In this document: positions 14,625 through 63,986 of the stretch, in pieces
Layout: each line of letters opens with the position of its first letter
Numbering within the stretch: the first letter of the stretch is position 1
NCBI RefSeq assembly: GCF_964204645.1
Contig: NC_134031.1
Location: 11,658,088-11,722,087, forward strand
Direction of reading: 5' to 3'
DNA length: 64,000 bases
Origin: Tubulanus polymorphus
Taxonomy: Eukaryota > Animalia > Nemertea
Translations under genes and position numbers: made by a program
The notes under the pieces: model-generated
Seen by the model: the letters and a program-made list of their open reading frames with translations, nothing else
Database searches by the model: none
What the model was told of the DNA's origin: nothing

Positions 14625-15391
14625 TTAGTAAAATTGCATAGGCAGTTTGACATACATCGAGAGTTTCCGGTTTTCTATACGTTTATATTCAACGTATTTT
14701 TCATTATGTATTGAGTTCCATAATTCAACAAATGTCTTTGCTTTATCCAGTTGATCTAAATATAATTTCATTTCTAGTTTGTTACCTTTCCTAATATTTT
14801 CAACTTTTTCTAAAGGTCTTAAGTTTTTCCAGCTCCATATTAACTTCAAATTGTATTCATCATTCATGTTAAATTTAGATATTGGTAACACATGATCAAT
14901 ATGAAAGTATTCACCATAGTTTTTTTCATTCATTTTATCGTCGAATTGATATATTATCCATTATTTGAGAAATTCATCTGAACACCCCAATAAATTAGAT
15001 AGTGTGGCTGAATGCGTTCTTTACTGAATAATTTTGTTAATCTAGAACTTAAACATTGTTTCAATTTAAAATTAAGATCCGTTTTATATCTTTCTTTTTG
15101 GTAATTATTTTGATACTCATTATAATGTTCTCTATTATCTTTTTTCCAATCTCTTAAATATTCTGGGTTATCATTTCGCTATTCCTTTTGATAATCTGGA
15201 TTATTTGCTCGGTATTGCTTATTCATTTCTTTAACTCAAGTTCTACAATAACGTTGCTTACCATCTTTCTGGGTTTTATCTTTGTATTATTCTGATGATT
15301 GTTTATTCAATTCACATTTTGAACATTTCTTATGATAAATATTAACAACACTATTTGTAATATTGATAGTTTGTGATTGTGTACTTTCCAT
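14625..15391 (-). pseudogene. HNH endonuclease of the giant-virus/phage type, with N-terminal CxxC
   Basis: KKCSKC...YC at the N-terminus, then NYGEYFHIDHVLPISKF...WKNLRPLEKVENIRKGNK. Internal stops and a frameshift. Confidence 0.75.
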
Positions 15392-15416
15392 TTATGATAC
15401 ATATTTTTAATAAAAA

Positions 15417-18062
15417 TTAACATGTAATAATCCTGTTCATTATTTCCTTTTCTTTCTCTTCTTCTCTTTTAAATTTTAAGTATTCTTCTAAATTGCAACC
15501 ATACGCGACTGTATGAATTCCATCATCTTTTCTATTTCTTCAATAAACATCTCGTGGTACTCAGATCTTAAACATTTCATCTTGTGTTTTCTAACTTCTT
15601 CATTGAATATACAATTGAACTACACTTTTGGTTATTCCTTTTAACTTTTTAGCTTCATGAGTTTTGGTTTAATATGAATACATTTTAGATCTAATGCCTA
15701 TAAATTCAATCATTTCCTCACCACCTAATTCATCATTAAACTTCCCTGGCACCTTTTTATTATCATTGCTAAACAATTTATGATCTTTTGGGTAATTACT
15801 AAAGTTGAAATGATGTTTTAATGTTTTTAAATCATCTGTTATGTTATTACTTTTAATCTTTAATATGTAACTGTCAGTATCAAAATATAAGATTTCTATA
15901 TGCTTCTCTCCAAAATGAGGTTTATAATAGAATTCATACATCAATAATTTTGATATTTCTAAAACTGAAGCACCAACATAAATTGGTTTATTGAATTTCA
16001 TAGAAGTTCTTCTCATTTTAACAGCGGCTAAATTTTTATCAAATATTCTGTTAACAATAAATTTAGGATATGTTTGTAGATGTCTAATTCTTTTACCATT
16101 GCTCACCAACTCAAAATCATTTCTATTTCTAATATTTTCAATTTTTTATTTATTCATTAACTTGAAGTAATCTTTTTCGAAATCAGTTTTAGCTTTAGTT
16201 CTCTGTTTGGTGTCAAAATCTATATATTTTTCTAACCATTTAGATTTTTGACTGAATGAAATATACCTATGTACTTTTTTTAGAATCAATCCTTGATTCA
16301 AATAAAACTTCAACATTCTATAATGTACTACATAATTATATTTATCTTCCTGAGTTACCATTAACTTTTCTGTACGAATATCATTTTCGGGTTTAATTCT
16401 TTTTTGATAATTTAATAATTCTTCATGTGTTACAGTTTTATGTTCGGGGCAGTAAACTAGATTCCTTGATTTGAATTTTTTATCTTCAGGATATTCCAAG
16501 TCTACAACAAAGAAGTAACCAGTATCTGAATCATCTGCAATATCTAGAATTCTTTTCTTCCAATCAAATTTATCATTATTTTCATGTTGTAAAACTTCAT
16601 TTATTTCAAATACTCCATAAGGCTGAGGCTCCATCATTGCCCAACCATATAGATTATTTGCATCTATATATAATAACTTATATCCAGGATGATCATTTAC
16701 ATTGAAATATCTATCGCCTAATACACTCGAAACTCCTTCTCTTATAGATTTTTCAAATAATAATAATTGATTTATATTTGTGAACAAATCCAATTTTATA
16801 TCTGTGAATTTTAAACCACAATCCCAAGTTAAACCTGGACTAGAATAACAATGACATGGATCAATATTGAAATATTTTAGATTTACATCTCTAAACCTTT
16901 CAAATATATCCGATAATAATAATACATCTGATTTTAGATATAAATCTACTAATTGTCCATGATTTTTTATTCCTAAATTGATTCCAAATATTCAATGTTT
17001 TATTATGGACTTCATCTTTAACATATTCATTTTTTAATTCATCATAGAATTGTTCTATTAATAATTCAGTTATATTAAAATCATTATGATTTTTATAAAA
17101 TGAATATGGAATTGCTCCTTTATAACTCATTAATTGAAAATCATCATTATTTGGATAGTGTTGCTTTAATATTTCTAATTCATCATCAACTAATGATTTT
17201 TATAAATTATCTAATGAACTGCTTAAAAATTATATAATAATATAATTCTCAGATGTTTTAGCTAACACTTTAAATTTATAAGTTGGTATTTTAGCAACAT
17301 CTTTTGATCTATTTGAATTTAATCTTTCAATTTCATTATTGATTTCTTCTATTTTATGACATAACTGTTTGAAAAATAAATGGGCATCATACACTGATAA
17401 ATTATGAAATACAACTGGAACAAAATTGATTTTCTTAGCTTGTAAGTTACAATTCTCATGCGCCGCACCTCTAAACTTTCCATTCAAATGATCATGGTCA
17501 CTAACTTTTTTATCTTTTAGATTAAATGTCTTTTCACAATAAAAACATTTATCTGCAAACTCAAATTCTTCTTTATCTTCTTCTGTCATAATCATTTCTT
17601 TTCTTTCATTTAACTTTTCATTAAATTTTATTTCATACTCAATTAATAAGTCACAAAAATGATTGATCACATTTTCATTTCTGCAATTATGATATTCACT
17701 TTTAATTAGTTCTGGATAATCAGTTTTTATATAATCAAAAAGCTTCAGCTGATTGATGAATCTTTTTAATATTAAAGGATCTGAATAATCAATTACATCA
17801 TTTTCATTAGAATTTAATTTCTTTCTTTTATAATATATTTCTTTTCTATCTTGGTCAGTTAATTCTTTATTTAATGATTCAAAATCTCCTTATATTACAA
17901 ATGGTACTTTATTTTTGTAATCATATTTTTTGAATTCTAATATTTCATCCTTTTCATTTGGTAAAACTATTTTACAATAATCATGATTATCTCACAATCG
18001 TTTATGATTTAATAATGCACTTTCAGTTCTGAATTTAGTTATACATTTTCTACATAGATATA
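15417..18062 (-). pseudogene. pPolB of P3, 3' part, intein-free
   Basis: YIDANNLYG, YFDTDSY and SDHDH...AHENCN; several frameshifts. Confidence 0.9.
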
Positions 18063-18458
18063 TGTTGCCGGGCTGTTTATTCGGCGGTATAGTTGATAGC
18101 CTCCGTTCGGTGCTGCCACCTTCATGGTCTGCATATAGTTTGAAGTCTTGACGGGAACAGTGTTAGTTTGTTGGCGGTCGCCTTCCAGGCAACCACTCTG
18201 TGAAATATATGTTGATGTGATTTACACTGTTCCCGCAGGTAAGAAAGCTTCGTATGATTCTGACTTAATTATTTATCATGTGTAATATTTATTGGTTAGT
18301 TTGTTGGCGGTCGCCTTCCAACAACCACTCTGTGAAATATATGTTGATGTGATTTACACTGTTCCCGCAGGTCTTTCGTTGTTGTTTAATGTTGGTTGGT
18401 GGAGTGGACCTCCGGACAGACGAGGCATATACAGGATTTACAAGAAAGCCCCGTCACA
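18063..18458 (+). repeat. 5' LTR
   Basis: TGTTGCCG...CCGTCACA; about six differences from the 3' LTR. Confidence 0.97.
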
Positions 18459-20318: not shown

Positions 20319-20784
20319 AGTAATAGGGGTAATAGGCTTTCAAATCAAAGGTCGAACGGTCGAGTTCATTAAAAAACAAATTATTAAAAGTAATTTAAAA
20401 CTATAATATATTTTTATAACCGTGTGCATTTCATATTATAACTAAATATTTATTCTAAGATATTAATAATTTTAATTTTAAAAGCATATTGTATTAAATC
20501 AACTGGTCGCTCCGCTTCGCTACCGCTCCGCTCCGCGACCAATTGATTTATTTACAATACACAAATTCATATAATCAAATATATTTTAATAATTATAATT
20601 ATTCTATTATTCAACTGAAATGCACACGGTTATGAAAATATATTATAGTTTTAAATTGCTATTACCCCTATTACTCTTAAAATAATCATATACATGAATA
20701 ACATTTAAATTGACAGATTATTCAATATAAAAGTGTAAGCTCTTATAGAATAGATATATAGATATATTTACAACATTATTTCAA
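20319..20784 (+). repeat. Left TIR of P2 (contains palindrome 20319-20675)
   Basis: Reverse complement of 41405-41925 apart from a ~55-bp deletion. Confidence 0.92.
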
Positions 20785-36225: not shown

Positions 36226-36268
<43 letters not shown>

Positions 36269-36345
36269 TATATCCATATACATACATATACACATGCATA
36301 CACACATATACACATATATACATACACATATACACATACATATGC
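35968..36345. repeat. Compound microsatellite (AAT)n/(ATGGTA)n/(CATA)n in the LINE 3' UTR
   Basis: Directly visible. Confidence 0.95.
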
Positions 36346-37464
36346 ATAAGATATATAAATATTTTCGAAAATAAATGAAGGTCGGCAACACAAAAAAGGT
36401 TTAATTTTAGAATGAATTAATAGTTCAAGAGTGTGGTTTTTTTGAATCGTGAGATAAAAGAATTTATGGTAGCAGCTTTGCGAAGATGATCATCAGTGTT
36501 CTGCCAAAGAATTGGAGTTCTACTTAAAAAAGAATCATGAAAGAGTTTCGTGGTATGAAATTGGACTCTGGCATTATTCCTGTTTCTAGTGTTATAATTG
36601 TGGAATTTTGAATTTAAATCTAGTAAATTGTAGATAGACAAAGGGAGCTTTTTATGAGAATGATTATATCCAAATTTAAGAATTTCTAATTTGACAAGAT
36701 CGGCAAATTTTAAAATTTTGTATTTTTTGAAAATAGGGGATGTTGGTGCATTGAAGGCAGCATTATCTATGAGTCGTACAGCTTGAGATCAGCATCAATA
36801 TTTAATCCTAGAAATTTACAGTCAGTAGATAATTCTATATTTAAATTTTCTAATTCTATTTTTAAGTTGTCTGACCTCAATAGATGCCTTTTTGGTTTGA
36901 ATAGTAAGTATTTAGTTTTTTCAATGTTCAGGGTAAGTTGATTGGCATGGAACCAGGAGGTTAATAATTTTAAATCATTTTTAGCATTTTGAAACAGTTC
37001 AGAAAGATTCTTTTCAGTACATAGACGGTTTGTATCATCGGCAAATGAGATGGCTTTAGAATGTTTGAGATTATTATTTAGATCGTTAACGTAAACAAGA
37101 AAGAGAAGCGGACCTAAGACTGAGCCTTGTGGTACTCCATGCATAAGCGTGTTGAAAGTCGAGTCAGCATTATTGTAGTGAACATAAATTTTTCTATCTT
37201 TGAGATAACTATGAAACCAGTTGAATGCGTGTCCCCTAATTCCATAGTGATATAATTTATAGAGTAGTTTGTCAATATTTAACAATAATAATAATAATAA
37301 TAATAATATATATATATATATCCATATACATTCATATACACATGCATACACACATATACACATATATACATACACATATACACATACATATGCATAAGAT
37401 ATATAAATATTTTCGAAAATAAATGAAGGTAGGCAACACAAAAAAGGTTTAATTTTAGAATGAA

Positions 37465-40400
37465 TTAATAGTTCAAGAGTGTAGTTTTTTTGAATCGTGA
37501 GATAAAAGAATTTATGGTAGCAGCTTTGCGAAGATGATCATCAGTGTTCTGCCAAAGAATTGGAGTTCTACTTAAAAAAGAATCATGAAAGAGTTTCGTG
37601 GTATGAAATTGGACTCTGGCATTATTCCTGTTTCTAGTGTTATAATTGTGGAATTTTGAATTTAAATCTAGTAAATTGTAGATAGACAAAGGGAGCTTTT
37701 TATGAGAATGATTATATCCAAATTTAAGAATTTCTAATTTGACAAGATCGGCAAATTTTAAAATTTTGTATTTTTTGAAAATAGGGGATGTTGGTGCATT
37801 GAAGGCAGCATTATCTATGAGTCGTACAGCTTTTTTTCTGGATTTTGAAAATAATATTAGTTTGCTCAGAGGAAAGCAGTGGACCCCAGACAACCAGTGC
37901 ATAAATAAGATGACAGTGAATATATGAATTGTAAATAGTTTTTTTCAAAAAACCTGGGAACATATTCTTTACAGTCCTTAGCAGGTACAAATTTTTATTC
38001 ATTTTATCGATAAGCTGTTTAATATGCAAATTCCAATTGAGATCAGCATCAATATTTAATCCTAGAAATTTACAGTCAGTAGATAATTCTATATTTAAAT
38101 TTTCTAATTCTATTTTTAAGTTGTCTGATCTCAATAGATGCCTTTTTGGTTTGAATAGTAAGTATTTAGTTTTTTCAATGTTCAGGGTAAGTTGATTGGC
38201 ATGGAACCAGGAGGTTAATAATTTTAAATCATTTTTAGCATTTTGAAACAGTTCAGAAAGATTCTTTTCAGTACATAGAAGGTTTGTATCATCGGCAAAT
38301 GAGATGGCTTTAGAATGTTTGAGATTATTATTTAGATCGTTAACGTAAACAAGAAAGAGAAGCGGACCTAAGACTGAGCCTTGTGGTACTCCATGCGTAA
38401 GCGTGTTGAAAGTCGAGTCAGCATTATTGTAGTGAACATAAATTTTTCTATCTTTGAGATAACTATGAAACCAGTTGAATGCGTGTCCCCTAATTCCATA
38501 GTGATATAATTTATAGAGTAGTTTGTCAATATTTAACGAGTCAAATGCTTTTGATAGGTCAAGACATATACCCAAAGAAAAATTTCTTTTTTCTAAATTA
38601 GCGATAATGTTACCAATAAAATCAGCTATGGCATGAGTTGTAGAATGGTTTGGTCTGAAGCCATATTGCGTAGTATTTAGAATTTCAAATTTAAACAAGA
38701 AATTATATAGTCGCTTATGAACAAGTTTTTCCAAGATCTTGGATAAGACTGGTAGTAGGGAAATTGGACGGTAATTGTTTAGAGTCTGTTTGCTTCCAGT
38801 TTTATGAAGAGGAATAACCTTTGCTATTTTCATTTTATCTGGGAATTTGCCTTCTTGAAGAGATTTATTACAAAGAATAGTCATAGGATTAATAATTGAG
38901 GGAGCAATAAATTTCAATAGTTTATTGCTTAAAATATCTGGACCCGTACTTTGTTTAGGCGAAAGCTGGTTGATCATTTTTTTATTATTTCCTCACTATT
39001 TGTAGGTTGCAGGAACATAACACTGTCATTTTTATTAGGAAGAAATGCTATGAAATTAGTGGTAGTGTTAGGTATTTTTTCTGAATACTTTCTGCCAACC
39101 GAAGAAAAGAAATCATTAAATGCAAGACTAATTTCGGAATTATCAGTAACTGTTCTTCCATCAATCTTAAAATTTGTCGTAATTGATGTTTTATCATTAG
39201 TCTTGCCAATTAGTTCTTTAATAAATTGCCACATTTTACGACAGTTTTTTCCAAAGGAATTAATTTTGTAATTATGAACGTTGGTCTGATTTATCTAACC
39301 CAATAACTTTTTTGTATAGATTATCACATTTCTTTGAGGATCTCAGAATAGAGTTAGTCATCCACGGCTCAATTAATTTGTTTTTCTTTTTTCTTTTTTT
39401 AATTTCTGGAGCTATACTATTAATAGTATTAGTAATATTTGTCATAATAAAGTCATACGATTCACTACAATTCATATTATCCAAATTTGACCAGTTAACA
39501 TTTAAAAGGGTGTTATTTATTGATTGTATATTTTTAGCATTAAGGTTACGGGAGAAGAATTCATTTGTTGTTGGTCTAACATTATATACAATAGAAACGA
39601 AACAAGGCAAGTGATCCGAAATATCAGTTAGTAGTATTGCACCAGTGTGATTACTATTTAGTTCGGGAGAGAGGTATATGTTATCAATTAGAGTAGCAGT
39701 GGACTTTGTGATTCTTGTAGGTCGCAGTATTGTAGGGCATAGACTATTGTTTAGGTTGATTTCTAAGAATTTTGATGTATTCTTATGACTATTGATCTTA
39801 ATGTAGTCTAAATTCTGATCCATACCAAGAACTATCTCTGATTTTTCGTTATTAATTTTTGTAATTAAAGTTCTGTATATTTCAAGAAACATTAGTTCGC
39901 TATTGCCAGGTACTCTATATAATTCACCAATAATAATTTTCTTTTTAGATTGAGTTTTAGGATAAATTTCTATGAAACAAGATTCAAATTTACCTTCTTC
40001 AAAAATGTCCAAATCAGTTCTCGGGTTGTACGATATATTATCATTAACGTAGATGGCGACTCCTCCTTGAGATAAATTCAGTCTATGATTTTCAATTAAA
40101 TGATAGTTAGATAATTTACAAAGAGGTCCATTTTTATCTGTTAGAAAGGTTTCACATATCATTATGACATCTATAATAATATTTTGATTTTTAAAGATTT
40201 CTATCATAATTTTGAGTTTATCAATTTTTGAATAGAGATTACGTACATTCAGTTGTAAGATATTAAGGTTGTTGGTAGTATTGAAATTATATACATCTTT
40301 CAGGTCACTGGGTTTAATATATGGACATTGATTACTATCTAGAATAAGATCATCATCAATGATTGAATTTAAATAATAATTTTTATCATTAGCTTTTTGT

Positions 40401-40513
40401 TTGAATAATTTAAAAAAATAATTTAGAACAAATACGTAAAACCAAAAAGAAGAAAATTTGATAAGGAAAAAAAAGAAAAAAAAAGAGTTTGTAATAAACA
40501 AAAAAATGCACAA
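37465..40513 (-). pseudogene. LINE ORF2 (APE endonuclease-reverse transcriptase), disrupted by stops and frameshifts
   Basis: LQLNVRNL, ICETFL, ATLIDNIY, SDHLP; NYRPISLL, QYGFR, DLSKAFD, GVPQGSVLGP, FADDT. Confidence 0.93.
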
Positions 40514-41404
40514 AAAGATGCTGACCTTTGACCGCCGTATACGGCAATAGTCAGCTAGTACTTGGTAGGTAGTTGATTAAATCAACTATGAGGCCAAGGC
40601 ATATGTGTCAAGGTTACAAAAGAATCTTATATTTTAGTCAAACAGATTTAGAGATAATATTATTATATATTGATTTATCTTCAGATTTTATAAACTTTAC
40701 TTTAACTGATATACTAATTTTAGGATATTCAACATCAGTTATTATTTTTATTATTTCTTTCATATTTTCTAAATGTTTTTTATTTTCTTCTTGTGTTTTT
40801 CCTTTATGAAATTTAAACTCGATAGCTGCTGGGCCAATATCACTTTTAAATGCTTCGGTTATCTCTATATCTTTTTTATTATCCAATAAATTAATATATT
40901 TTCTTACATCTTCCATGTATGGTCTTTTATTGTTTAATTTATTTTTTATGCTTTTAATTGTCTTCTGTTTCTTATCATTATCTTTATCAAAATAATCTTC
41001 ACCTAAAATATCATTATTCATATTTCTAATATTTCTATATTCTTTTAGATTTTAAATGTTCATTATAATATCTTTTATCACTGAATGATTGATTACATGT
41101 ATCACATTTATATATTTCTTTTTCATTCTTTAATTCATCTAATTTAGTTTCTAATATATCATCTTCATATTCTAATTTCAATTTATTCTCTAAATGTGTT
41201 TTAGTTTTATTGTGTCTTGCTTTTTGGGATTTATCTATATTGATTTTACATGTTGAACAGTAGTACTTATTTGCTTCCATTTTAATACTAAATTTTTTAT
41301 TAAAATTGATTTTAGAAGTTCAATGATTTATATCATGTATTATTTCAATCACACTTTACTAACACTTTTAATGTTTAAAAATCTAACTCATACAAATATG
41401 AATA

Positions 41405-41925
41405 TTGAAATAATGTTGTAAATATATCTATATATCTATTCTATAAGAGCTTACACTTTTATATTGAATAATCTGTCAATTTAAATGTTATTCATGTATA
41501 TGATTATTTTAAGAGTAATAGGGGTAATAGGCTTTCAGGTTAATGGTTGAATGGTCGAGTTCATTAAAAAACAAATTATTAAAAGTAATTTAAAACTATA
41601 ATATATTTTCATAACCGTGTGCATTTCAGTTGAATAATAGAATAATTATTATAATTGAAATATATTTGATTATATGAATTTGTGTATTGTAAATAAATCA
41701 ATTGGTCGCGGAGTGGAGCGGTAGCGAAGCGGAGCGACCAATTGATTTAATACAATATGCTTTTAAAATTAAAATTATTAATATCTTAGAATAAATATTT
41801 AGTTATAATATGAAATGCACACGGTTATGAAAATATATTATTGTTTTAAATTACTTTTAATAATTTGTTTTTTAATGAACTCGACCGTTCGACCTTCGAT
41901 TTGAAAGCCTATTACCCCTATTACT
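41405..41925 (-). repeat. Right TIR of P2 (contains palindrome 41514-41925)
   Basis: Inverted match to 20319-20784. Confidence 0.92.
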
Positions 41926-47372: not shown

Positions 47373-47768
47373 TGTTGCCGGGCTGTTTATTCGGCGGTAT
47401 AATTGATAGCCTCCGTTCGGTGCTGCCACCTTCATGGTCTGCATATAGTTTGAAGTCTTGGCGGGAACAGTGTTAGTTTGTTGGCGGTCGCCTTCCAGGC
47501 AACCACTCTGTGAAATATATGTTGATGTGATTTACACTGTTCCCGCAGGTAAGAAAGCTTCGTATGATTCTGACTTAATTATTTATCATGTGTAATATTT
47601 GTTGGTTAGTTTGTTGGCGGTCGCCTTCCAGGCAACCACTCTGTGAAATATATGTTGATGTGATTTACACTGTTCCCGCAGGTCTTTCGTTGTTGTTTAA
47701 TGTTGGTTGGTGGAGTGGACCTCCGGACAGACGAGGCATATACAGGATTTACAAGAAGCCCCGTCACA
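47373..47768 (+). repeat. 3' LTR
   Basis: Direct repeat of 18063-18458. Confidence 0.97.
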
Positions 47769-47772
47769 TATA

Positions 47773-49044
47773 TTTTATTATCAAAATCATTTTCTGATTC
47801 GAAAAAGAAATCTATTCTTTTAATCCACATATAATGATTCTCATAATATAATATATATATAACATCATTTGAATCATAATCTTTTGATAAATACAAAGGT
47901 TCTATTGTATAATTTTTTATATTTTTACCTTTCGTTTTTGGTAATTTGACTAAATCAAACACATTTATCTTTATATCATTATCTCTTTCTATTTTTGGGA
48001 TACTTTTAATTCTAACTGGATAACTGTCTATCTTATAATCATTTTCAAATTGTTTATAATTGTTAATCTAAAACTATGTGTAATATCTTCTGTTGGATGT
48101 AAGCAACTTATAATTGTCCATAGAAAACATTTATCATCAAAATTTTGTACATTTATTACAGCATTAGTTTTAAATGGTAATTTGATATAACTTGATCCAT
48201 TTATATTATCATCTTTATAATATGATAAATTATTTTCATCAATTTGTTTTGATTTAGTTAACTTATTATATTTTGTGTTATAAACATGTAAAGTCATAAA
48301 TATTATTTCATCAAATATTAAACCAGATCCTTCAAAATATTTCTCTTCTATTTTAGTTTTTACTTCATTATAACATTTATCTTATTTTTCATCTATATGT
48401 TGTTTTGAAATAATATGTTGCGAATGGGAATTTATATTATATATTGGTTCATCTTCAGATTTTATAAACTTAACTTTGACTGATATGCTAATTTTAGGGT
48501 ATTCAACATCAGTAATTATTTTTATAATATTTTTCATATTTTCTAAATGTTTTTTATTTTCTTCTAATGTTTTTCCTTTATGAAATTTAAACTCAATAGC
48601 AGCTTGACCAATGTCACTTTTAAATGATTCGGTTATTTCAATATCTTTTTTATTATTTAATGAATTAATATAATTTTTACATCATCCGTGTATGGCCTTT
48701 TATTGTTTATTTTAGTTTTTATTCTTTTAATTATCTTCTGTTTCTTATCATTATCTTTATCAAAATAATTTTCACCTAAAATATCATCATTCATATTTCT
48801 AATATGACTTTTAGATTTTAAATTTTTTATAATATCTTTTGTTACTGAATGATTGATTACATGTGTCACATTTGTATGTTTCTTTTTCATTCTTTAATTC
48901 TTCTAATTTAGTTTCTAATATATCATCTTTATATTCTAATTTCAATTTATTTTTTAAATGTGTTTTAGTTTTATTATGTCTTGATTTTTGGAGATTTATC
49001 TATATGAATTTTACATGTTGAACAGTAGTACTTATTGCTTCCAT
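47773..49044 (-). pseudogene. pPolB of P3, 5' part
   Basis: Zinc-finger N-terminus, EGSG, SSYIKLP, DDKCFLW, ENHYMWI. Confidence 0.9.
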
Positions 49045-49083
49045 TTTAATATCCAATCTTTTTATTAAAATTGATTTTAGAAG

Positions 49084-49440
49084 TTATTCGAAATCTATTT
49101 CCTGGTGTCCTTTTTCATTCTTACACTTATATATGAAATAGAAATCACCAGAACATAATTCTTCTAAATCTTCACTAGATAATCTATGAAATCTATCCGG
49201 CAAATATGTTTTGAATTTATATTTATTTCCTTTTAATCCTTCATATTCCAAGTGAATAACTAATTTATCTCCATATTTGTTAGAAACTGTATCAATATTT
49301 GGAATTAGATATTTCTTATGAATTGTTAATTCTGTTAACTTCTTAAATTTATAATCTACTGATTTAGCATTTGTGATATCTTTTATTCTATCTAGAAATG
49401 ATTTGTTGTTCTAACTGTGTACTTGTTTACTACTCTCCAT
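49084..49440 (-). pseudogene. Putative SSB homologue, upstream of pPolB in P3
   Basis: Nucleotide homology to 8968-9321; early stop. Confidence 0.6.
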
Positions 49441-49500
49441 TTTAATATCAAATTTTCTATTAAAATTGATTTTAGAAGTTATTCATTTTTATATTTTAAG

Positions 49501-49621
49501 AGTAATAGGGAATATGTTGTTTCGTATCAAAGGTTGAAAGGTCGAAAAATAAATTCGAGTGTGCGAGAATTATTTTTCGACCTTTCGACCTTTGGAATGA
49601 AACAACATATTCCCTATTACT
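49501..49621. repeat. 121-bp terminal hairpin of P3
   Basis: AGTAATAGGGAATATGTTGTTTC...GAAACAACATATTCCCTATTACT. Confidence 0.88.
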
Positions 49622-51000: not shown

Positions 51001-51149
51001 TATATAAGTTACCGAAAGGGCACTCGCCTATTTATTCATTAAAACTTAAGACTGGCTGTGCACTTCACCAAGTTTCGACTTTGGCATATTGTTACTGTAA
51101 TTAAGAATTAGTAATTAGGAAATGGCGTTTTCATTCGAGAGGTCGAGAC

Positions 51150-51189
51150 ACCACTCATCACCACAAGTAATTTCTTTTCCTTATAAATG
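51150..51189 (+). repeat. 40-bp inverted repeat, left copy
   Basis: ACCACTCATCACCACAAGTAATTTCTTTTCCTTATAAATG; 37/40 match to the reverse complement of 57511-57550. Confidence 0.9.
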
Positions 51190-54100
51190 GGAGAGAATAA
51201 GACAGAACAAATTGATGTTAATGAAAATCAATATTATTGTCCATATTGTAAAAAATACATTGATAAATCTCAAAAATCGCGTCATGAAAAATCTTCAAAT
51301 CTAAAATATAATATAAAAAATGTTATAGATTTTGAAACTTCAGATAATTCCAATGAAAGAAAAGAACGATTAGAAAATATGAATTTGGATGAAATAAAAT
51401 GTGAAGTTTGTAATGAATTTATAGTAAAAAGGAATTATAATAGACATCTCGAATCACAAAAACACCATCAAAATTTGAGTAATACTGTTTTAGGAAAAGA
51501 TTATTTCGATGATAAACCTCAAAAAGTAAAAAAACCAACTCCAAAAACTAAATCCTTTAGAAACATTACGTAGTAAAATTGGTCCTGCAGCTATTATATT
51601 TAGATTTTTTAAAGGTACAACAATAGAAGATTACAGTAAATTTAATGAAATGATAGAAAAATACTAGATTTGGTAACAGATGTTGAATATCCAAAAATTA
51701 GTATCTCTGGGAAAGTAAGTTTTTTAAAGTCAGAAGAGAAAATGGATTATAATATTCAAACACTCTCTGAAGAAATAATTTCAAAAACGCAAATAAAAGA
51801 GAAGTTAGAAAAAATATTTAATGAATTTAAACGTCATATTGAAGAAAGATATTTTGAGGGTTCTGGTTTATCATTAAATGAAGTTATATTTTTAGATTTA
51901 AATGTTTATAATACAAAAAGGAATAAAACATCAAAAAGTAAAACAATGTTTAAAAATGATTCAAACTTTACAACAGAAAAGGATATTAAAGCATCATCTT
52001 ATATTAAATTACCATTTACAACAAAAGCAGTAATAAATGTTCAAAATGAAGATAATAAATGTTTTCTATGGTCAATTATTAGTTGCTTACACCCAACAGA
52101 AGATATTACGCATAGTTTTAGAATAACAAATTACCGGAAATATGAAACATTATATAAAATTGATCAATATCCAGTAACTATAAAAATGATACCCAAAATA
52201 AAAAAAAATTAATAAGTTAAAAATAAACGTATTCGAATTAATGCAATTACCAAATACAAAAGGTGAAAATATTAAAGATTATACTTTGGAAGCTTTATAT
52301 TTAACAGAATATTATGATGATGAAAATGCTATAGATTTGTTATATTACAAAAAAGATGAAAATGAACATTATATGTGGTAAAAACAAATTGATTTATTCT
52401 TTAGAACAGAAAGTGATTTTAACAGTCATAAAATTTATCTATGTAGAAAATGTTTATCTAAATTCAGAACTGAGAATGCGTTACTAAAACATAAAGAATT
52501 ATGTGATAATAAAGATTTTTGCAAATTAATAATGCCAACAGAAAAAGATTATAAATTGAAATTTACTAATCATAAATTTAAAAATATTGTTCCATTTGTA
52601 ATTTATGGGGATTTTGAATCGTTGAATAAAGAATTAACTGATCAAGATAGTAAAGAAATATATAACAAAAAGCAATTATTAAAATCAATGGATAAAGGAA
52701 ATGAATTAAATGAAGACACAACACAAGACCCGCCAATTATAAATACAATTAAAAAAGTTCATCTAAGAGCTGCTGCTTACGGAATTTATATAAAATCAAA
52801 TTATCCTGAATTATATGAAAGTCGATATATTTCTTTTAGAGGTGAAAATGTAGTTAATGATTTTTGTGACAAAATGATTGAATTAGAAAGTGATTTTGCA
52901 AAATTATTAAACAAAAATAAAAGAATAGTTATGACAAAAGAAGATGAAATTGATTTAATTATGCAACTCATTGTTGTTATTGTGAAAAACGTTTTTATTC
53001 ATTTGATAAAAAAGTTAGAGATCATGATCATTTAAATTCAAAATATCGTGGAGCTGCTCATGAAGATTGCAATTTACAAGCTAAGAAAGTTAATTTCGTA
53101 CCAATATTATTTCATAATTTATCAGGCTATGATACCCATCTATTTATAAAACAATGATCAAAGAAATTGGGCACAATTAATCAAGAAATAGAAGAATATA
53201 ATGCTATGAATGGTGTAAATGTAAGAAAATATGATTTTAAACTATTAGCTAAAACATCTGAAAATTATATTTCATTTCAATTTGGTTGCATTAGATTTTT
53301 AGATTCTTATAGATTTCTAGTAAGTTCATTAGATAATTTATCAAAAAGTTTAGTTGATAATGATTTTGTTATAACTCGATATTATTATCCAAATGAACAA
53401 GATTTTAAATTATTGAGATATAAAGGTGCAATTCCTTATTCATTTTATAAAACACACAATGATTTTAATGTAACAGAATTATTAAAAGATCAATTTTATG
53501 ATCAATTAAAAGAGGAGTATGTGAAAGATGAAGTGTTTAATAGAACATTAAATATTTGGAACCATTTTAAGATGAAAAATCATGGTGAATTAGTTGATTT
53601 ATATTTAAAATCAGATGTTATGATATTGGCTGACATATTTGAAAAATTTAGAGAAGTTAATTTGAATCATTTTAATGTTGATCCTTGTTATTGCTACTCT
53701 AGTCCTGGTTTAACCTGGCAATGTGGTTTAAAATATACAAATGTAGAATTAGATTTATTAAAAGAACCAGACATGGTTTTATTATTTGAAAAATCAATTA
53801 GAGGTGGAATTAGTGGTGTTATGGGAGATAGGTATTTTAAAGCAAATGATGAATATAAATTATTATATATTGACGCCAATAATTTATATGGTTGGGCAAT
53901 GATGCAACCTCAACCATATAAAAATTTTATATTAACAGAAGTTGAAAATGATGATAAAACTGATTGGGAAAGCGCAATTGCGAGTTTGAAAGATGAAGCA
54001 CCAATTGGTTATTTCTTTGTAGTTGATTTAGAATATCCTGAAAATATAAAGTTTAAAACAAGAAACTTACCTCATTGCCCAGAACATTTAACTGTAGATG

Positions 54101-56187
54101 ATAGTTATTTAAGTGAATACCAGAAGAAAATAAAACCGAAAGATCATGTTTTTACAGAAAAATTAATACTTACTCAAAATAATAAATACAATTATATTGT
54201 TCATTATAGAATGTTAAAATTTTATCTAAAACAAGGAATGAAATTAAGGAAAGTACATAGATATATTGAATTTAATCAATCGAAGTGGTTAGAAAAATAT
54301 ATAGATTTCAATACTCAACAGAGAACCATATCAAAAACAGATTTTGAAAAAGATTTCTTCAAATTAATGAATAATAGTTTTTATGGTAAAACATGCGAAA
54401 ATATTAGAAATAGAAATGATATTGAATTAGTAAATAATTCTGAAAGATTAAGACATTCACAATCAAGTCCTAGACATTTAGGAAATAAAAGATTTGAAGA
54501 TTATTTAAAAGCAGTTAAATTAAAAAGAACGTCAATGAAATTTAATAAACCTATATTCATTGGTTCAACTGTTTTAGAAGTATCAAAATTATTAATGTAT
54601 GATTTTTATTATAATGTTTTACAACCACTTTTTGGGGAAAAGCATATTGAAATATTATATTTTGATTCTGTAACAGCTGACACCCCAATATTATTAAAAT
54701 GTAATGATAAAATATTGATAAGAAGAATTTCAGAAATAATTCCAAAACAAAATGAATGTTATATTTCATATGATGAAAAAGAATTAATACAAATAAATGA
54801 ATTAATAGATGTTTGGACAAGAAATGGATGGAAAAAAATTAAAGAATATTATTAGACATAAAACAAATAAGAAAATCTATAGAGTTAGAACTAAATTAGG
54901 GTTTGTAGATGTTACAGAAGACCATAGTTTAATTAAACGAAATGGCGATGAAATAAAACCAACTGATATAAAAATTGGATATGAATTATTACATAAAAGA
55001 TTTTTCCAAAGAATGAATCATATGTCATTCGATGAAATTATTGATAATATTTATAATATAGAACCCGAAACATTAGAAGAAAAAGAATATTTTATCAAAG
55101 GATCTTTCATGGGTGATGGTTCAGCAGGTGTGTATAATTATGTTTGGGGTAATAAATATTGTTAGTATTTATGCAATCAAGACTTGAAATTATTAGAAAG
55201 AATTAAGAAATTCTGTGAAGAAGTTTATTCACATAAAACATTTAGAATCATGGATGTTATGAAATCATCAGCAGTTTATATAATACTTGTAAATAATCCT
55301 AAAGATTTTGCTATAAAATATAATGATGAATTCTATATTCATGCAATAGTGAAAAGTAATACTTCAACTAAAGAAAAGATAGTTCCAGATTATGTATTAA
55401 ATGCAAAAAATAATTTAAGAAAATGGTTCTTCATTGGATTCTACGCAGCAGATGGTGCTAAAAAATTTACAAAAGATAAAAAGATAACCTTTGCACAGAA
55501 AGGAAAAGTTGCTATATCAGGGTTAAATATATTATGTAATTCATTAGGCTTCAATATGAATATTGGATTGATTAAATCTAAACCAAATTGCTTTAATTTA
55601 AGCCATACAGAAAAAGATTTAACTGAAGAAGTTAAAGATTTATTTGAAATATATAACCCAACAGATAATGTTTATGATTTATCAACTGAAGATGGCACAT
55701 TCAACTGTGGATTTCCATTAATTTGCTTCAATACGGATGCGTACATACTAAAAATCAAGACAAATGACATAACAAAAGACTTAAAAACATTAAAACATCA
55801 TTTTGATTTTAGCAATTATCCCAAAGATCATGAACTATTTAGCAATGATAATAAAAAGATTTCTGGTAAATTTAAAGATGAATTAGGGGGTGATGAAATG
55901 ATTGAATTTGTTGGGATAAGAAGTAAAATGTATAGGTACAGAATAAAAGATCATGAAATAAAAAGTTAAAAGGAATAACAAAACATGTGGTTGATAAACA
56001 TATAGAATTTCAAGATTATATAAAGTGTTTATATAACTCAATTGTAATGAAACATAAAATGAATTGTTTAAGATCAGAAAATCACGAGATGTACATTAAT
56101 GAAGTTGAAAAAACTAGTTTGAATCCATTTGATGATAAAAGGCATATTTTAGATGATGGTATAAAAACATTACCTTATGGCCATTAA
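51187..56187 (+). pseudogene. Divergent pPolB of P4 containing an intein
   Basis: C2H2 fingers, DNKCFLWSI, YGDFES, RDHDH, YIDANNLYG, KLMNNSFYGKT, YFD[intein]TDAY, NPFDDKR; several frameshifts and stops. Confidence 0.95.
54667..55732 (+). mobile_element. Intein with LAGLIDADG homing endonuclease at the PolB motif-C (pol-c) site, ~355 aa
   Basis: Block A SVTADTPI, block B VDVTEDHSL, block C FIKGSFMGDG, block D KIVPDYVLN, block E FFIGFYAADG, block F VYDLSTEDGTF, block G ICFN|T. One +1 frameshift near 54840 and one TAG at 55163-55165. Confidence 0.95.
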
Positions 56188-57513
56188 AACAGAAAATCAA
56201 TATCATCATACTCGAAATCACTATTGGCTTCTTCATTTTCATTTAATTGTTCTTGTATAATTTGTTTAGGTTCTTCCATTTCATTTTTCTCATTTAAATA
56301 AAGTTCTATCTTGTACCACATTTCATATCGCTCTCTTTGTTTCTTTTTGTTTGTTAATTCGTCAAATGGAATTATAATATCGATGTTTAAATAATTTACA
56401 ATCTTATTTAAAAAGAATTCATAATTAATTGAATCTGTTATTCTATTTTCCAAATGATACATTAATATTTGTTTGAATGTTTTTTTTTATATTTTCCATA
56501 TCTTCTTCTGTTAATTTAGGTTTTTCATAATAATCGTTAAATAATAAATATAAATACATTTTCTTTTGTTTTCTGTTAAATGTTGATGGAATAATTGTTT
56601 TTATAATATCTTTTTTAGTTATTTCACCATTTTTATTTTCTATTATTTTCATTTTTTCAAGCCATTGCATATATTCTGGTGTATGATCTTCTATAGAAAA
56701 TATTTTAAAAATTTCATCTAGATAAATTAATTTTGGTTCTATGAGAAAATCTCTAGTATTTTCTTCACCCCATAAATTCTTTTGCCATCCACAATCAACA
56801 CAAAATAACACAGTACCTTCTTGTCTTAAATCGCGTAATTACATTGTGGACATTTTCGTTTATAATTTATTGGTAATAGATCTTCATTAAGCTCTTGGTA
56901 TTTTCTTACGTTTTCTTTATGTTTTATTGTTCTATTATGTAGATTTGAATTACTTGTTGTAATAATCAATTTACAATATTTACAATAATATGTTTTTCTT
57001 GTTAATTCATTATATTGTTTTTCTAACTTTTCAACTGTTTCTTTATTATCTGGTAACGTTTTCTCATATTTTATTTTTTCTAATAAATTATTTTTTCTTT
57101 CATTGAATTCAGTTTCAAATTAATTAGAAATTTTATCTATATGTACTTTACGAAATTGATGATTCTCCCAATCTTCTATATTTTCAGGGCTATATTTTAT
57201 TCGACAAGGCTCACAGAAATGATCTTTTATATTATCCTTATCATAGAATAAGAAAGGTCTTTTCCAAATAATGTCAGGTTCAACTTCAACAGAATTACTA
57301 TTACTTTCATTACTATCAACATTAGCCGTTGCGCCATTAATTTTACACTTCTCTGAATGTTTTTTAACATAATTTCTTGAGAATAATTTATTACATTTTG
57401 GACAGTTTAGTTTAGGGGGTTTATAATTTTCATCATGTTTTTTCATATGTCGAGCCATATTACTTTTTTCTTAGAAGTTCACCACAAATTTCACATGCTA
57501 TCTTCTCATCCAT
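56184..57513 (-). pseudogene. Multi-zinc-finger ORF(s) specific to the P4 module
   Basis: TAAATG start at 57513 inside the right IR; CEIC...HMKKH, CPKC...HSEKC, CEPC...H...H, CKYC, CPQC and CVDC motifs; broken by stops and frameshifts. Confidence 0.6.
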
Positions 57514-57550
57514 TTATTAGGGAAAAAAATTACTTGTGGTGATGAGTGGT
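57511..57550 (-). repeat. 40-bp inverted repeat, right copy
   Basis: CATTTATTAGGGAAAAAAATTACTTGTGGTGATGAGTGGT. Confidence 0.9.
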
Positions 57551-57571: not shown

Positions 57572-58321
57572 ATGGTAGAATTAAAAGAATACAGAATATT
57601 TGTTGATTCTAGAAAACTTACAAATTATCAATCACATAATTTAATAGTTCAATTAGATAGAGAATTTAAGAATTGTGTAGATTTAAAATTAGTTAATATA
57701 AGTTTATGTAACTCATTTTACAATATATCGGATAAAAGTTTTGATCATAGATTGTTTATGATTCATGATAAAAATATGGATAAATAGTATCATCTATTTC
57801 TAAGACCAGGATTATATAATTTAGAAACATTATCTCAAGAAATTAATAGAAGAGCTCGGTTAAAAGTGGGTGAATCTGTTGGGTTTAACATTAAATTTAA
57901 TAAAATTGATAGTACTTATAAAATAAGAATAAAGTTAACTAATGAACAATATAAATTCATAGTAAGAAAACCATTAGCTAAAATGCTAGGAGTTAATCCA
58001 AATAAAGTTTATTCAAATGTTTATACTACGCCAAATATAATACCTTTTACGCACTTCTATATTTATTGTAATTTAATTGATCCTACAAAAACATTCGAAG
58101 CAACTAAAGATACAATTTGTAATTCTGGTTTATTAAATATTTTACCATTAAAAAATGTCAAACAATTTGGAACTCAAATAAATTATAATTTAACAGAATG
58201 TGATTTAAAACCTTGCATTCCACATTTCAATAATTTTAAATTAGAAATAAGAAATCATAATGGTTATTTAATTGATTTGAATAACTGTCCTGTAATTTAT
58301 GAATTAGTTATAAGATGTTAA
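57572..58321 (+). pseudogene. Minor capsid (penton) protein, internal stop
   Basis: Homologous to the P1 and P2 pentons. Confidence 0.7.
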
Positions 58322-58343
58322 GAGTACTTTTTTCACTATATAA

Positions 58344-58700
58344 ATGAATATAACTGTTGGACCGAGTATATGTTTTGGATTTGATTTTAAACGTGAGAAA
58401 GAAATGAAATTTAACATTAATGATGTAATTACACATATCAAAAATATTGCATTTTCTAATGAAACAACATTTGAGTATGAAACAACAATAGATAAAGAAA
58501 CTTAAAATGTAGAAACGATTACTAATTTAATTAGAGAATCTTTAAGATTTTATGAATTAGATGAAGATTTTATCATCGATGATATTAAAAAAATAATAAT
58601 TGAAATATATACAAATAAAACTAGTAATGAAATAAATGTTGAATTAATCATCGCTAAGATAACTAAATATTTTGAAGATAGTAATTTTTTTGATAAATAA
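58344..58700 (+). pseudogene. MNITVGPS-family hypothetical protein, internal stop
   Basis: Nearly identical to the P2 copy. Confidence 0.6.
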
Positions 58701-58922
58701 ATGAGTGATAATAAGTGGATAATAACTGGATTATATAATGGAGCATTACTATCAGTTGGAACTGTTGGTTATTCAATGATATTTAAAAAAGTATTTAAAA
58801 TGGGAAGTGTTAATGTTGATAGATTTGATATAAATGATATTTTAAAATTAACATTAGCAGTTACTTTATCTAATTTAACTATTGATTATTTGGAAAAACA
58901 AAAATATATTCCTCCCATATAA
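58701..58922 (+). CDS. Small hydrophobic protein (73 aa)
   Basis: Intact; homologue of 30692-30913. Confidence 0.75.
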   Translation: MSDNKWIITGLYNGALLSVGTVGYSMIFKKVFKMGSVNVDRFDINDILKLTLAVTLSNLTIDYLEKQKYIPPI

Positions 58923-58946
58923 ATGCGTAATTATTTTACTAAATAA

Positions 58947-59369
58947 ATGGCTTCTGCAATTATAACGATTATAGGATCAGCAATTGTTAACGCTTTAGCA
59001 TTTACTGGTGGCGGTTATTCATTTAAGCATATTGATAAAAATAGTTCGTTAGGAGAACAAAGAAGACATAATTTAGCATTAGAGAAATTTGATAAAGCAG
59101 CAGAAGAATACAGAGAAAAACGACAAAGCTATATCGATTATATTAACAAGGAATTATATGATCAGAAGATTTCACATAGAGATTTTCAATCAGTTGATGA
59201 TGCAATGAGTTTATATAACGCAGTAACCAATAAAGAAAAATTACATCTATACAAACCTAAATTATCAGATTATTATACCCCAAGTAAAGAACAACAGAAA
59301 TATGAAATAATTTGGATTTTAGGTGGAACAGTTATTGTTATATTTGTAGCATATAAATTTACTAATTAG
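58947..59369 (+). CDS. Small membrane-associated protein (140 aa)
   Basis: Intact; homologue of 30245-30667. Confidence 0.75.
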   Translation: MASAIITIIGSAIVNALAFTGGGYSFKHIDKNSSLGEQRRHNLALEKFDKAAEEYREKRQSYIDYINKELYDQKISHRDFQSVDDAMSLYNAVTNKEKLHLYKPKLSDYYTPSKEQQKYEIIWILGGTVIVIFVAYKFTN

Positions 59370-59388
59370 TAATTTTTTTTCTAAATAA

Positions 59389-59823
59389 ATGGAAGATAAA
59401 GTTGATAGTATTGATATTATTCCTCATGATATCAATAAAACTAAATTAAAAAACATATTTAGAAAAACAAATATTAGAATTTGAAAGTGACTTAAAGATA
59501 AAAAGAAAAAATATTCAAAAAGTAAAATTATATATTATCTTATTATTAGTGGTTCGGTTACAATTAGTTCTGTAATAACATTTCTAGCAATATTCAGTCC
59601 ATTAACACCTTTAGCTATATCAATTGGTGTATTAGGATTAAGTTCAAGTGTATTAACTGGTATAAGTTCAAAATTAAATATAAAAAGTAATAAAGAAAAA
59701 ATTAAAACTAATATAAAAGAAATTAATAAATTGAAGAATACACTAGATTATATGATAAGTTTAAATGGTCATATAACAGTTGAAGAACAAGATAAATTAT
59801 TAAAAGAATTAATAAATTATTAA
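59389..59823 (+). pseudogene. Two-TM protein, frameshifted
   Basis: Homologue of 29799-30224. Confidence 0.65.
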
Positions 59824-59839
59824 TTTTTTAATTAAATAA

Positions 59840-61229
59840 ATGGTAGATGGTTTTCCAAAATCTTTCCAATATAATAAATCAATTAAATATAATATTCCAG
59901 CAATAGATTTTAATAAAGATATTACATATAGAAATGAAGTTTTAGATTCATTAACTAATTTAGAAATTTATGTTACTGAAACTAATAATTTTAATGCAAA
60001 GATGGAAAATATATTTCATGTATATTTAATTAATTTTAAAAAATTGAAAGATGAAAAACAATGGTTATTAAAATCTAATATGAAGTATTGGCAGAACCAA
60101 TTAAATTTTGCTGTTTATTGTGCAACAACAGGTTGTGGAATTAGTTGGAATGATCATTTGAATAATTCTAAATATAAATTAATTCAAAGTTTATTTAGAT
60201 TTCATACATACTTTCAAATCAGAATAATATTAAATGAATTAGAGTGCGCTTTACCAGGATCTAGATATTTTAAAGAATTAGATAATAATATTAATTTATC
60301 AAAGTTTTACAAAATTTGTAATGAATTTGATATAGATATAAATAATTCTGATTTTAGAACAAAAATTGGAACAATAAGATCACTTCCTTGCCCTAAAAAG
60401 ATTGCAGAATATTGTGCACTTCCCATACCATCTAATAGTTTATATAATATCTGTAGTAATAAATTAGGTTATGGTAAAATAGAAACTTAGGATTTAGAAA
60501 CATTAAATTTCAATAAATTACCGACATTTTATGATAATTTAAAACAAGAAGACAATAATGGTTGGGTTTATTTCATTTTAGAAAATAATGAAGGTTTTAC
60601 AAAATCAGGTATACAAAGAATAAATCAATCTATTAGAACTTATTTGATATGTATTTTAGGTGCGCAAGTTGAAACAAGATCCCCAATAATTGGAAATTTA
60701 AATACATCATTTGATACACAGAAACAATTCAAAGTATTATTTGAAGATTCTATTCATAATGATAAAAATAGATCGATTCCAGAAAACATTGTAAGATATC
60801 AAAATTATTTAGATAAATCACATATTAGATTAAATTATTGTATAGGCCCTAATCTATTTATTATTTCTAATGATTTAGTATTAAAGATGGGAAACATAAT
60901 TGGTTAACAATAATCTAATTAAAACTGCAACAATAAATAATTCATTTGGATTAAATGATATAAATAAAAAGATTATTACTGCTCCAAAATTAATGGAAGG
61001 TGAAAAAAACAAAAAACACATTCAATCAACAGAAACTAAAACTAAGAATAATAAATTAAATAATGATTCTAAAATAAAAGATTACAATACTACAGAAAAT
61101 ATTAAAACTGATAATATTCAACATGATATAATTAAACTAAATGATGATAATAAATCCCATGAAAATACTAAATTAGCTTTAACTTGTATAGGAATTGTTA
61201 TAGGAGGAATATTATATTTTAAATTTTAA
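59840..61229 (+). pseudogene. Conserved hypothetical protein with C-terminal TM
   Basis: Homologue of 28466-29782. Confidence 0.65.
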
Positions 61230-61245
61230 TTTTTTTATTATATAA

Positions 61246-62688
61246 ATGGATGTAGAAGGTGGAGAAGATTATGAAATGGAAAATATGGGAAATAATAATG
61301 ATGCCAATACTAACGATGATGATTATATGACTGCTGATACTCATATTGATAATGATGGTAATGAATCATCATATAATTCTAATTTAGCAGAAAGTGGTTC
61401 TAAAGCCCCATCAACAGATGAATTGATAGAAGAACTAGATCGAGAATACCTCCTGAAAATTTAAATCAAGGAAAGAGAAAGTTTTGAAAATTATGAATTT
61501 ATGTATGATTTTCAACGTGTATTTAAAGATTCTGGATACAATATAAATAATAGAGGCGCCAGACTTTTAGTACAAGAATTAAAGTTTTTAGATGGTAAAT
61601 ATTATTATCATGTGAAAGATAAATCGGATTATTATATTAATATCTCTAATAAAAATCAAGACAAAATAATAGCAAAATCAACTTTGCTTAAGTCTGACTC
61701 ATTACTACCTAGAATTAAGAGAATAAGAAATAGTAATGAAATAGAAGATGTAACACAAGAAGAAATAAATCAAAATAAAAGAGTATTTAAACTAAGAATT
61801 AATAAATTATTTGAAACAATCAAAGATAATCCAGAAACAGAAACAACTTCTGAACAGAATATAAATTCCAAAACTAGTAAACTTAAATCAAATAAAGTTC
61901 CAATTGAAAAACTTTTACCGAATGGATTAATTGATGCAACAGATCAACAATTAGAAGATTTAAATAATATATTTTCTGATAAAGCAATTAGAGAGATTAT
62001 TAGTATAAGAAATGAAGCTGATAAAATTGCGCATGATAAAAGTATAAAAGATTTAAAAATTAGAACTTTAGAAAAAGAATTAACTGATAAAAATAAAGAA
62101 ATAGAACAATCAAAATTAGATAGAGATAATAAAGTTATTGAAGAAATTGAATTTAAAAAAAGAAATGCATATTTAGAAAAAGAAATTGATGATTTAGAAT
62201 ATAACATAGAATTACAAAAAGAAGAAATTAAATTATTATTAAAATCATATGATTATAATATTAATAGATTAAAAGTTATTTTTAAAGATTTGTTGATAAA
62301 ACCAGATTCTAAAATATCATTGAAAGATGGAATGAAATTATTATTTAAGTTAGAAGGAATAACAATTCTTTCAATTCTAAGAGCTGTAATTATGTTATTT
62401 ACAACAATTGGTTTAGCAATATCAAATGCTTTAAAATCTACTCCTACTCCAAATAAACCAGATAAACCCCCAGGTAATAATTCTATACAAGATAAAGTTA
62501 AAGATGGTTTAAAGAAATTAGCAAAATATTTATGGGAACTATCTAAAAAAATCTGCTGCAGCATTGCCAGGAGTTATTGCATCAATTGTTGGTTTTATAT
62601 TGAAATCTGCAGGAAACATTATTACTTTGCTGCTGAACATATTATTTTATTTTTAATTACAGTTGTAAGTGCTATTATTTTGGGTTAG
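61246..62688 (+). pseudogene. Large coiled-coil/TM protein
   Basis: Homologue of 27078-28449. Confidence 0.65.
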
Positions 62689-62731
62689 TGAATATGATTA
62701 AAAATAGATAATTAATTTTTTTGTTAAATAA

Positions 62732-63986
62732 ATGAGTGGGAGTTATATAAGTCCTTCTAAGATTTCTAGAATATCTAATGCTATTAAAGCAGAAAGATCA
62801 CATCATATAATTACTCATAATCCTTCAAATATTAATCCCGATGAAACTTTATATGTTAGAATTCCTCGATTAACACAAAATACTTTTTATGTTCCAAATA
62901 GTATTTATTTATCAGCCAATATAAAAGTTACGATAATGATGGTCATGATAATAATTATGTTGTTGATGATCTTAGGAGATATTTGATTAAAAAATTAACT
63001 ATAAAGATTGGTCCAGAAACAGTTTTCTCATTAGATGATTATAATTCATTTATGCATTATAAAGATTTATGGTTTACTAAAGAAAATAGAAATAATATGA
63101 TATTTCAGGGTATTCAATCGGAAAACCATAATAAATTAAGATCAGGAGCTAATGACGCAATAGTAACTCGTGCCACAGATAATTTGATTAAAAAGATTTA
63201 TGGGAGCAAATATAAAATTCCATTAGACTTTGAATTGATAAATAATAATGCACCTTTATATAAATACGCAATTCAAGAAGATATTATATTTGAGATAACA
63301 TTTGCTCTTGTAAATGAAATTGTATTATCTAGCGTTGTTAAAGATATGGGTTATAAATTATCGAATATATGTTTAGAATATGACACAGTAACTAATGAAA
63401 ATATTGCTAGCACAATTCAAAGTCAATACAATCAAGGATTTTCATTATTATATGATTATATTGATAAATTTAAAACTGTAACTATTAATGCAAATGGTGA
63501 AATAATTAATGAGAATATTAACTCCCCTAGAAGATCTATTAAAGGTATATTAATATTTTTTACAATTGCAACATATTCTAATGGCGCAATAAATGTTGAT
63601 AATTATCATAATCCTGAAATATCAAAAGTAGAAATAACTATTGAATGTATAGCAAATAAATTATTTTGTCAAGGAATGAGAATGATAGATCAGTGGCCAG
63701 AAATTAGAAAACATTTTATGAATAAAAAAAAAAATTATCTGAAAATTTTAATATTAATCAAATTGATTATTATACCGGTAATAAATACGCATAATGGTTA
63801 GATTTTAGAACAACTAAAGATAATTTATTACATGGTTCTGGTAAAAAACTACAGAACACTAAAGATGGAATACAATTATTCATGACAAAGAAAAAAGGAA
63901 GCTTAAATTTCAAAATGCACATTTATATTATATCTGACGCGCAATTAAATATTGTAAATTCTCAATTGAATAGTGTTATGCATTAG
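62732..63986 (+). pseudogene. Major capsid protein, full length but frameshifted
   Basis: THNPSNINPDETLYVRIP...YKIPLDFE...YKLSNICLEYD...RRSIKGIL...ISDAQLNI. Confidence 0.78.

Follow-up and report, generated by a model that had tools for sequence, protein, structure and literature searches.

Exchange of replication genes between Polinton/Maverick elements has been described before. Swaps of the protein-primed PolB polymerase (pPolB) are reported for nematode Polintons in the available text of one study (PMC10748475), and the accessible portions of two further sources describe mosaicism of the replication module (10.64898/2026.10.13.758929; PMC11296320). A VLTF3 homologue is known as an accessory gene in polintoviruses (PMC11131425, in the part available to us). 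Inteins, as far as the partly accessible sources go, have been recorded in other settings: the Mimivirus PolB intein occupies the pol-c site (PMC549080), a 2018 survey lists viral inteins in NCLDV families and unclassified viruses (PMC5784728), and Krupovic et al. suggest only that other nuclease inserts in pPolBs may derive from intein invasions (PMC11071308). Three more papers mention inteins only in general (PMC12220804, PMC3671162, PMC5718144); PMC10748475, PMC8502044, PMC11131425 and a pair of 2026 preprints do not use the word 'intein' in their main texts. In the literature searched, no Polinton polymerase was described as carrying a canonical intein; subscription papers, supplements and repeat databases may annotate one.

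The window analyzed here, a 64,000-nucleotide stretch of Tubulanus polymorphus contig NC_134031.1, is a nest of decayed Polinton/Maverick copies (P1, P2, P1b/P3 and P4). A preliminary description had singled out 6.4 kb of P4 as a replication cassette with its own 40-bp inverted repeats. We interpret this cassette, with a probability of about 0.78, as the left 6.4 kb of a decayed copy of a multi-copy Polinton subfamily. The copy would start at position 51110, and the repeat would be a promoter-type element that lies in the terminal repeat and is reused internally. The features of P4 are as follows.

51110 to 51149, plus strand: outer part of the left terminus of P4, a diverged homologue of the P1-P3 termini.
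51150 to 51189, plus strand: left copy of the 40-bp motif, with a 16-bp family-specific part and a 24-bp generic, T-rich TAAATG part.
51187 to 56187, plus strand: pPolB gene, assigned by Pfam DNA_pol_B_2 (PF03175, E=1e-17) and by phylogeny; broken.
54667 to 55732, plus strand: predicted LAGLIDADG intein of 1066 bp in motif C (YFD|S ... N|TD); it contains a single frameshift and a single stop.
56184 to 57513, minus strand: multi-zinc-finger gene whose C-terminal part resembles VLTF3 (late transcription factor 3); broken in P4.
57511 to 57550, minus strand: second copy of the 40-bp motif, inverted and internal to the element, with a T-rich motif on either side in head-to-head arrangement.
57572 to 63986, plus strand: structural block common to P4 and P2; P4 extends past the window edge.
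62732 to 63986, plus strand: putative major capsid protein gene, the last gene of the block, 91-92% identical in nucleotides to that of P2.

Both cassette genes, pPolB and the zinc-finger gene, are broken in P4 by stops and frameshifts. P2 (20319-41925) has an integrase with a chromodomain, an A32-like packaging ATPase, a capsid gene and terminal repeats, and it is flanked by a 6-bp duplication with one mismatch (5/6 bases match). P4 resembles P1, P2 and P1b/P3 (Polintoviricetes, adintovirus-type) in its protein-primed PolB, structural block, capsid gene and a terminus that starts with AGT. It differs from them in its short, non-hairpin terminus, inferred at ~85 bp where Jeong et al. cite 100-1,500 bp, in the replacement of the SSB-like gene by a VLTF3-like one, in the internal copy of the sub-terminal motif and in the intein. 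The window also records the order of some insertions. Two polymerase fragments (15374-18066 and 47768-49621) belong to a single Polinton that was cut in two by the insertion of an LTR retrotransposon, whose LTRs (18063-18458 and 47373-47768) are 98.5% alike and flanked by a 4-bp duplication; P2 was inserted later, into this retrotransposon, and itself contains a LINE-like insert near 36234-40600.

The analysis confirms the 40-bp inverted repeat. Its copies at 51150-51189 and 57511-57550 agree at 37 of 40 positions, with 3 mismatches, and each is closed by the inward-facing ATG of a cassette gene (pPolB or the zinc-finger ORF), as the preliminary description had noted. A 24-nt core has exactly two matches in the window, at 51150 (plus strand) and 57527-57550 (minus strand), and none of 100 shuffles gave two. 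When the repeat was compared with 20 other gene starts, its two parts behaved differently. The inner 24 bp matched at 14-19 of 24 positions in 15 of the 20 starts and at 9-13 of 24 in the remaining five, two of them out of register, whereas the outer 16 bp reached at most 8/16 at the same starts. TAAATG is a late initiator in poxviruses. At the right copy, a 15-bp core is flanked by two T-rich motifs, one directed at the VLTF3-like gene and the other at the first gene of the structural block.

Raw reads from an independent 2026 run with the same species label extend this picture. The motif was covered at a depth of 1852, the zinc-finger gene at 163-185 in its 5′ end and the junction with the structural block at 145, so that the motif is about 10 times commoner in reads than the gene it encloses. 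It occurs in at least three upstream and at least four downstream contexts, the window's own included, and tandem copies with a period of 25-30 bases are present in 132 reads (five joint rows; run X6, window 57519-57548); such an array resembles an enhancer repeat. These depths, contexts and tandem copies mark the motif as a repeated cis element, and most copies of the enclosed gene seemingly continue into structural genes, while up to about one-fifth of the VLTF3-like copies may have no structural junction. It is thus likely that the 40-bp repeat acts as a promoter and does not mark where a separate plasmid ends. A shared promoter or origin element had been offered in the preliminary description as its alternative, and this alternative is supported by a motif that precedes several different sequences. 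Scans of viral contigs with a 22-nt version of the motif gave no match.

The P4 end was said to lack the hairpin terminus of its neighbors, and for the hairpin this is correct: the 121-nt fold of the P4 end has an energy of -6.3 kcal/mol, versus -48.7 for P3. The terminus itself is present in diverged form. It is correctly oriented, starts at 51110, which is 40 bp beyond the left repeat, and is identical to the P3 terminus at 28 of 39 positions, in register from the first base, a level reached by 0/1000 shuffles. In a profile built from eight P1-P3 terminus copies, 51110 is the best non-training match in the window at 14.4 bits, a score that is only moderate when compared with the maxima of window-wide shuffles (10.4 on average, 17.8 at the highest); when shuffling is confined to the 1,487 bases that separate P3 from the polymerase, 5 of 5000 shuffles reach it. 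P4 has no hairpin form but does have a terminus. The P1-P3 termini are imperfect palindromes of 121-412 bp (13322-13716, 20319-20675, 41514-41925 and 49501-49621) that can fold as long hairpins (P3 -48.7, P1 -114.3 kcal/mol), and the start of the related locus L002 (1-120) has a like arrangement.

Two departures among the loose ends listed for the reads bear on the extent of the terminus. At 51135/51136 about 1000 reads part from the window copy, and their majority letters, judged by eye, continue along the P1 terminus in register; 332 reads match the window up to 51194 and diverge beyond it. These positions suggest a terminal repeat of ~85 bp (51110-51194) with the region of the 40-bp motif as its inner half, and the reads that diverge past 51194 would come from a second end with the same 85 bp. 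That estimate comes from short reads because the window does not include P4's far end, integrase or target-site duplication, and 150-base reads are too short to connect the terminus to a gene 6 kb away.

The replication and structural parts of P4 have different affinities. As had been claimed, its pPolB is the more divergent part: the core is 76-77% identical in nucleotides to those of P1 and P2, which are 95% identical to each other, while the structural genes are close to those of P2 (79-97% per gene). At the protein level, 481 residues of the polymerase show 72% identity to P1/P2, and the value for L001-L003 is likewise 72%. A FastTree phylogeny of 46 rows (P4, 9 proteins that carry the intein and, out of 80 BLAST rows with good coverage, the 36 closest, with no plasmid polymerase) places it as sister to P1, P1b and P2 plus L001-L003 with a support of 99. 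Shared-site counts in the polymerase core favor P1-P2 (342 versus 40 and 24), and in the structural block common to P1, P2 and P4 they are reversed, with P2-P4 at 106 versus 57 and 61. This incongruence supports module exchange between Polinton lineages, and the structural block is mosaic in its turn. The preliminary description had set against its own proposal a motif that precedes many genes together with congruent polymerase and capsid trees; the motif does precede several different sequences, which is half of that counter-case, but polymerase and structural genes are incongruent. The capsid gene matches Pfam Capsid_N at E=0.004, under the cut-off, and homologues of 31-38% identity occur in 5 of 99 related loci.

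An SSB-like gene is indeed missing between the P4 pPolB and the structural block. The slot beside the polymerase is fluid, since the close relatives L001-L003 carry other genes there. SSB-like genes lie upstream of the polymerase in P3 (49084-49471), L002 and L003 and downstream of it in P1 and P2 (8968-9352 and 32059-32443); L001 and L002 have a different, cysteine-rich gene of 256 amino acids after the polymerase. P4 resembles the swaps described in the accessible parts of PMC10748475, 10.64898/2026.10.13.758929 and PMC11296320 in that the polymerase diverges most, end modules are exchanged and repeats can bracket replication genes. It differs from the cases given there in that the exchange took place between close lineages (72% amino acid identity) and in that several genes have the bracketing repeat as their upstream motif too.

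The gene that occupies this slot in P4 is probably VLTF3-like in its C-terminal part, judging by a weak Pfam hit (Pox_VLTF3, PF04947, on the P4 fragment: E=0.006, 16.7 bits against a cut-off of 25) and by Atlas hits of an intact homologue. This homologue, P0123, is colinear with the zinc-finger gene at 39-47% identity on long pieces, and 27 of the 30 Atlas hits of its residues 320-525 are Pox_VLTF3 clusters, with a score of 0.93. The PF04947 profile found no match in P0123, P0125 or P0126 and was absent from the 5 viral records examined. Viral contigs contained no match to the VLTF3-like piece or P0123, prokaryotic genomes none to P0123, and the 99 related loci no VLTF3-like gene; a word-based search for longer homologues returned none for the piece and only P0123 itself for P0123. 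An AlphaFold model of P0123 was set aside for its mean pLDDT of 43, and P0124 proved to be a spurious repeat match. Unlike the VLTF3 of polintoviruses as presented in the available text of PMC11131425, the VLTF3-like part in P4 is fused behind several zinc fingers and falls below the Pfam cut-off.

The cassette holds only these two genes, and it is very unlikely that the 6.4-kb unit is a capsid-less, autonomous replicon, or was one until recently, and replaced the native replication module. Such a replicon would fit the incongruence between polymerase and structural genes, and the repeats separate the replication gene from the structural genes, in the way that the accessible part of a preprint describes for other elements (10.64898/2026.10.13.758929). 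P0123, moreover, lies on a cassette-sized contig of 6,508 bp, but a 99% identical cluster mate is on a contig of 16,883 bp. The Polinton terminus stands outside the repeat, the polymerase is nested with Polinton copies, and junction depth (145) is near that of the enclosed gene (163-185). The unit also has no integrase, whereas the mobile pPolB examples in the portion of the same preprint available to us are paired with one. The linear-plasmid- or transpoviron-like replicon with CATCAC-rich termini that had been proposed is not supported, given the Polinton-type terminus outside the repeat, a pPolB that is sister to P1/P2 and the lack of an integrase or helicase.

Protein-primed origins of the adenovirus type sit in terminal repeats, and the motif belongs to the putative terminal repeat of P4. 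Its internal copy could accordingly be imagined as an auxiliary origin or a recombination site at which the 6.4-kb segment inverts or short replicons arise, and the depth at the end of the element (617-648), which exceeds internal depth (230-520), is what short derivatives would give. We regard this as unlikely: the internal copy is without the terminal 40 bp, and the sole opposite-strand joint among the 15 of 145 joints listed, 51177/57548, has the geometry of tandem copies and was rejected as an inversion for that reason. A one-off chimera, or an assembly error that joined two unrelated elements, might be suspected in a window made of nested, decayed insertions, but the independent 2026 run covers the junction at a depth of 145 with many variant reads, and a piece of a Logan contig spans 57548-57669. 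Read coverage largely refutes this explanation, which we consider extremely improbable.

The preliminary description had also missed, in the polymerase gene of P4, an intein that is of giant-virus type and predicted to be self-splicing. It splits motif C between Asp and Thr, at a site that is empty in P1, P1b and P2. The first residue is Ser, the last Asn and the +1 residue Thr, and a TxxH block and two LAGLIDADG motifs are present; the penultimate residue is Phe rather than His, with Ser, Lys or His in the homologues, and many of the PolB inteins compared are likewise without a penultimate His. A partial piece of the P4 intein matches Pfam Intein_splicing (E=1e-4) and LAGLIDADG_3 (E=2e-4), both under the cut-off. 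LAGLIDADG_3 is above it in the homologues P0003, P0007, P0009 and P0011, and Intein_splicing (E 1e-4 to 5e-7) is under it in all. The best PDB match is PI-PkoII (E=9e-4). P0003, the best match among 120 of 180 listed, is an intact protein-primed polymerase of 1693 amino acids whose intein is 64% identical to that of P4, and intact homologous inteins of 333-354 amino acids have identical junctions. Read depth over the intein (165-247) is near that over the VLTF3-like gene (230-291), which implies that most copies of the P4 subfamily probably carry it. With the pol-c inteins of Mimivirus (PMC549080, accessible part) and PI-PkoII, the P4 intein has in common the site xxD|TD, Ser first, Asn last, a +1 Thr, a TxxH block, two LAGLIDADG motifs and a length of ~355 residues. 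It is unlike the archaeal and giant-virus PolB inteins known from that material in that its host gene is a protein-primed Polinton polymerase in a eukaryotic chromosome.

Related inteins are present in at least 12 protein-primed polymerases from the databases. In a quick IQ-TREE phylogeny of the 69 of 143 proteins in which both junctions were found by pattern, together with P4, 13 protein-primed-polymerase inteins (that of P4 included) form one clade among conventional PolB inteins with an SH-aLRT of 100; three of these 13 rows belong to the P0006 and P0009 clusters, and the remaining rows of the tree are inteins of PF00136-type PolBs or topoisomerases. Related inteins of type II topoisomerase-domain proteins (P0012, P0098 and P0101) form a clade of their own (98). 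P0007 is a protein-primed polymerase with an intein of the same clade in the same motif, and the palm of P4 could not be aligned to it at E 1e-3. On the polymerase tree the intein is patchy, and the starred branches force at least four changes, a count that is biased because the intein-bearing rows came from the intein search. None of the 99 related loci contains the intein, and viral contigs had no match to the intein or P0003. On balance we lean towards a Polinton-specific lineage of giant-virus-type pol-c inteins that spreads by homing among the protein-primed polymerases of distant Polinton groups and has entered the chromosomes of the host with them, with filled and empty alleles a few kilobases apart.

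P4 is quite likely a Polinton subfamily in which terminus, polymerase and VLTF3-like gene constitute an end module, joined by recombination to the common structural block. We infer that the three moved jointly, by recombination between Polinton lineages. The 16-bp family-specific part of the motif would mark early genes, namely the polymerase, the VLTF3-like factor and a gene at the far end; the structural genes would carry only the T-rich TAAATG part and would be expressed late under the control of the VLTF3-like protein. After translation, the intein would excise itself from the polymerase by splicing, and it could spread by LAGLIDADG homing into the empty motif-C sites of co-resident Polintons. 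Homing converts flanking sequence, and the intein is therefore a possible mechanism for polymerase swaps in Polintons.

The repeat-bounded cassette can thus be understood as ordinary Polinton anatomy combined with known module shuffling. A canonical, site-specific intein in Polinton polymerases would be direct evidence of gene flow with viruses that have conventional PolBs, and the presence of filled and empty sites in one genome makes homing testable from sequence alone.
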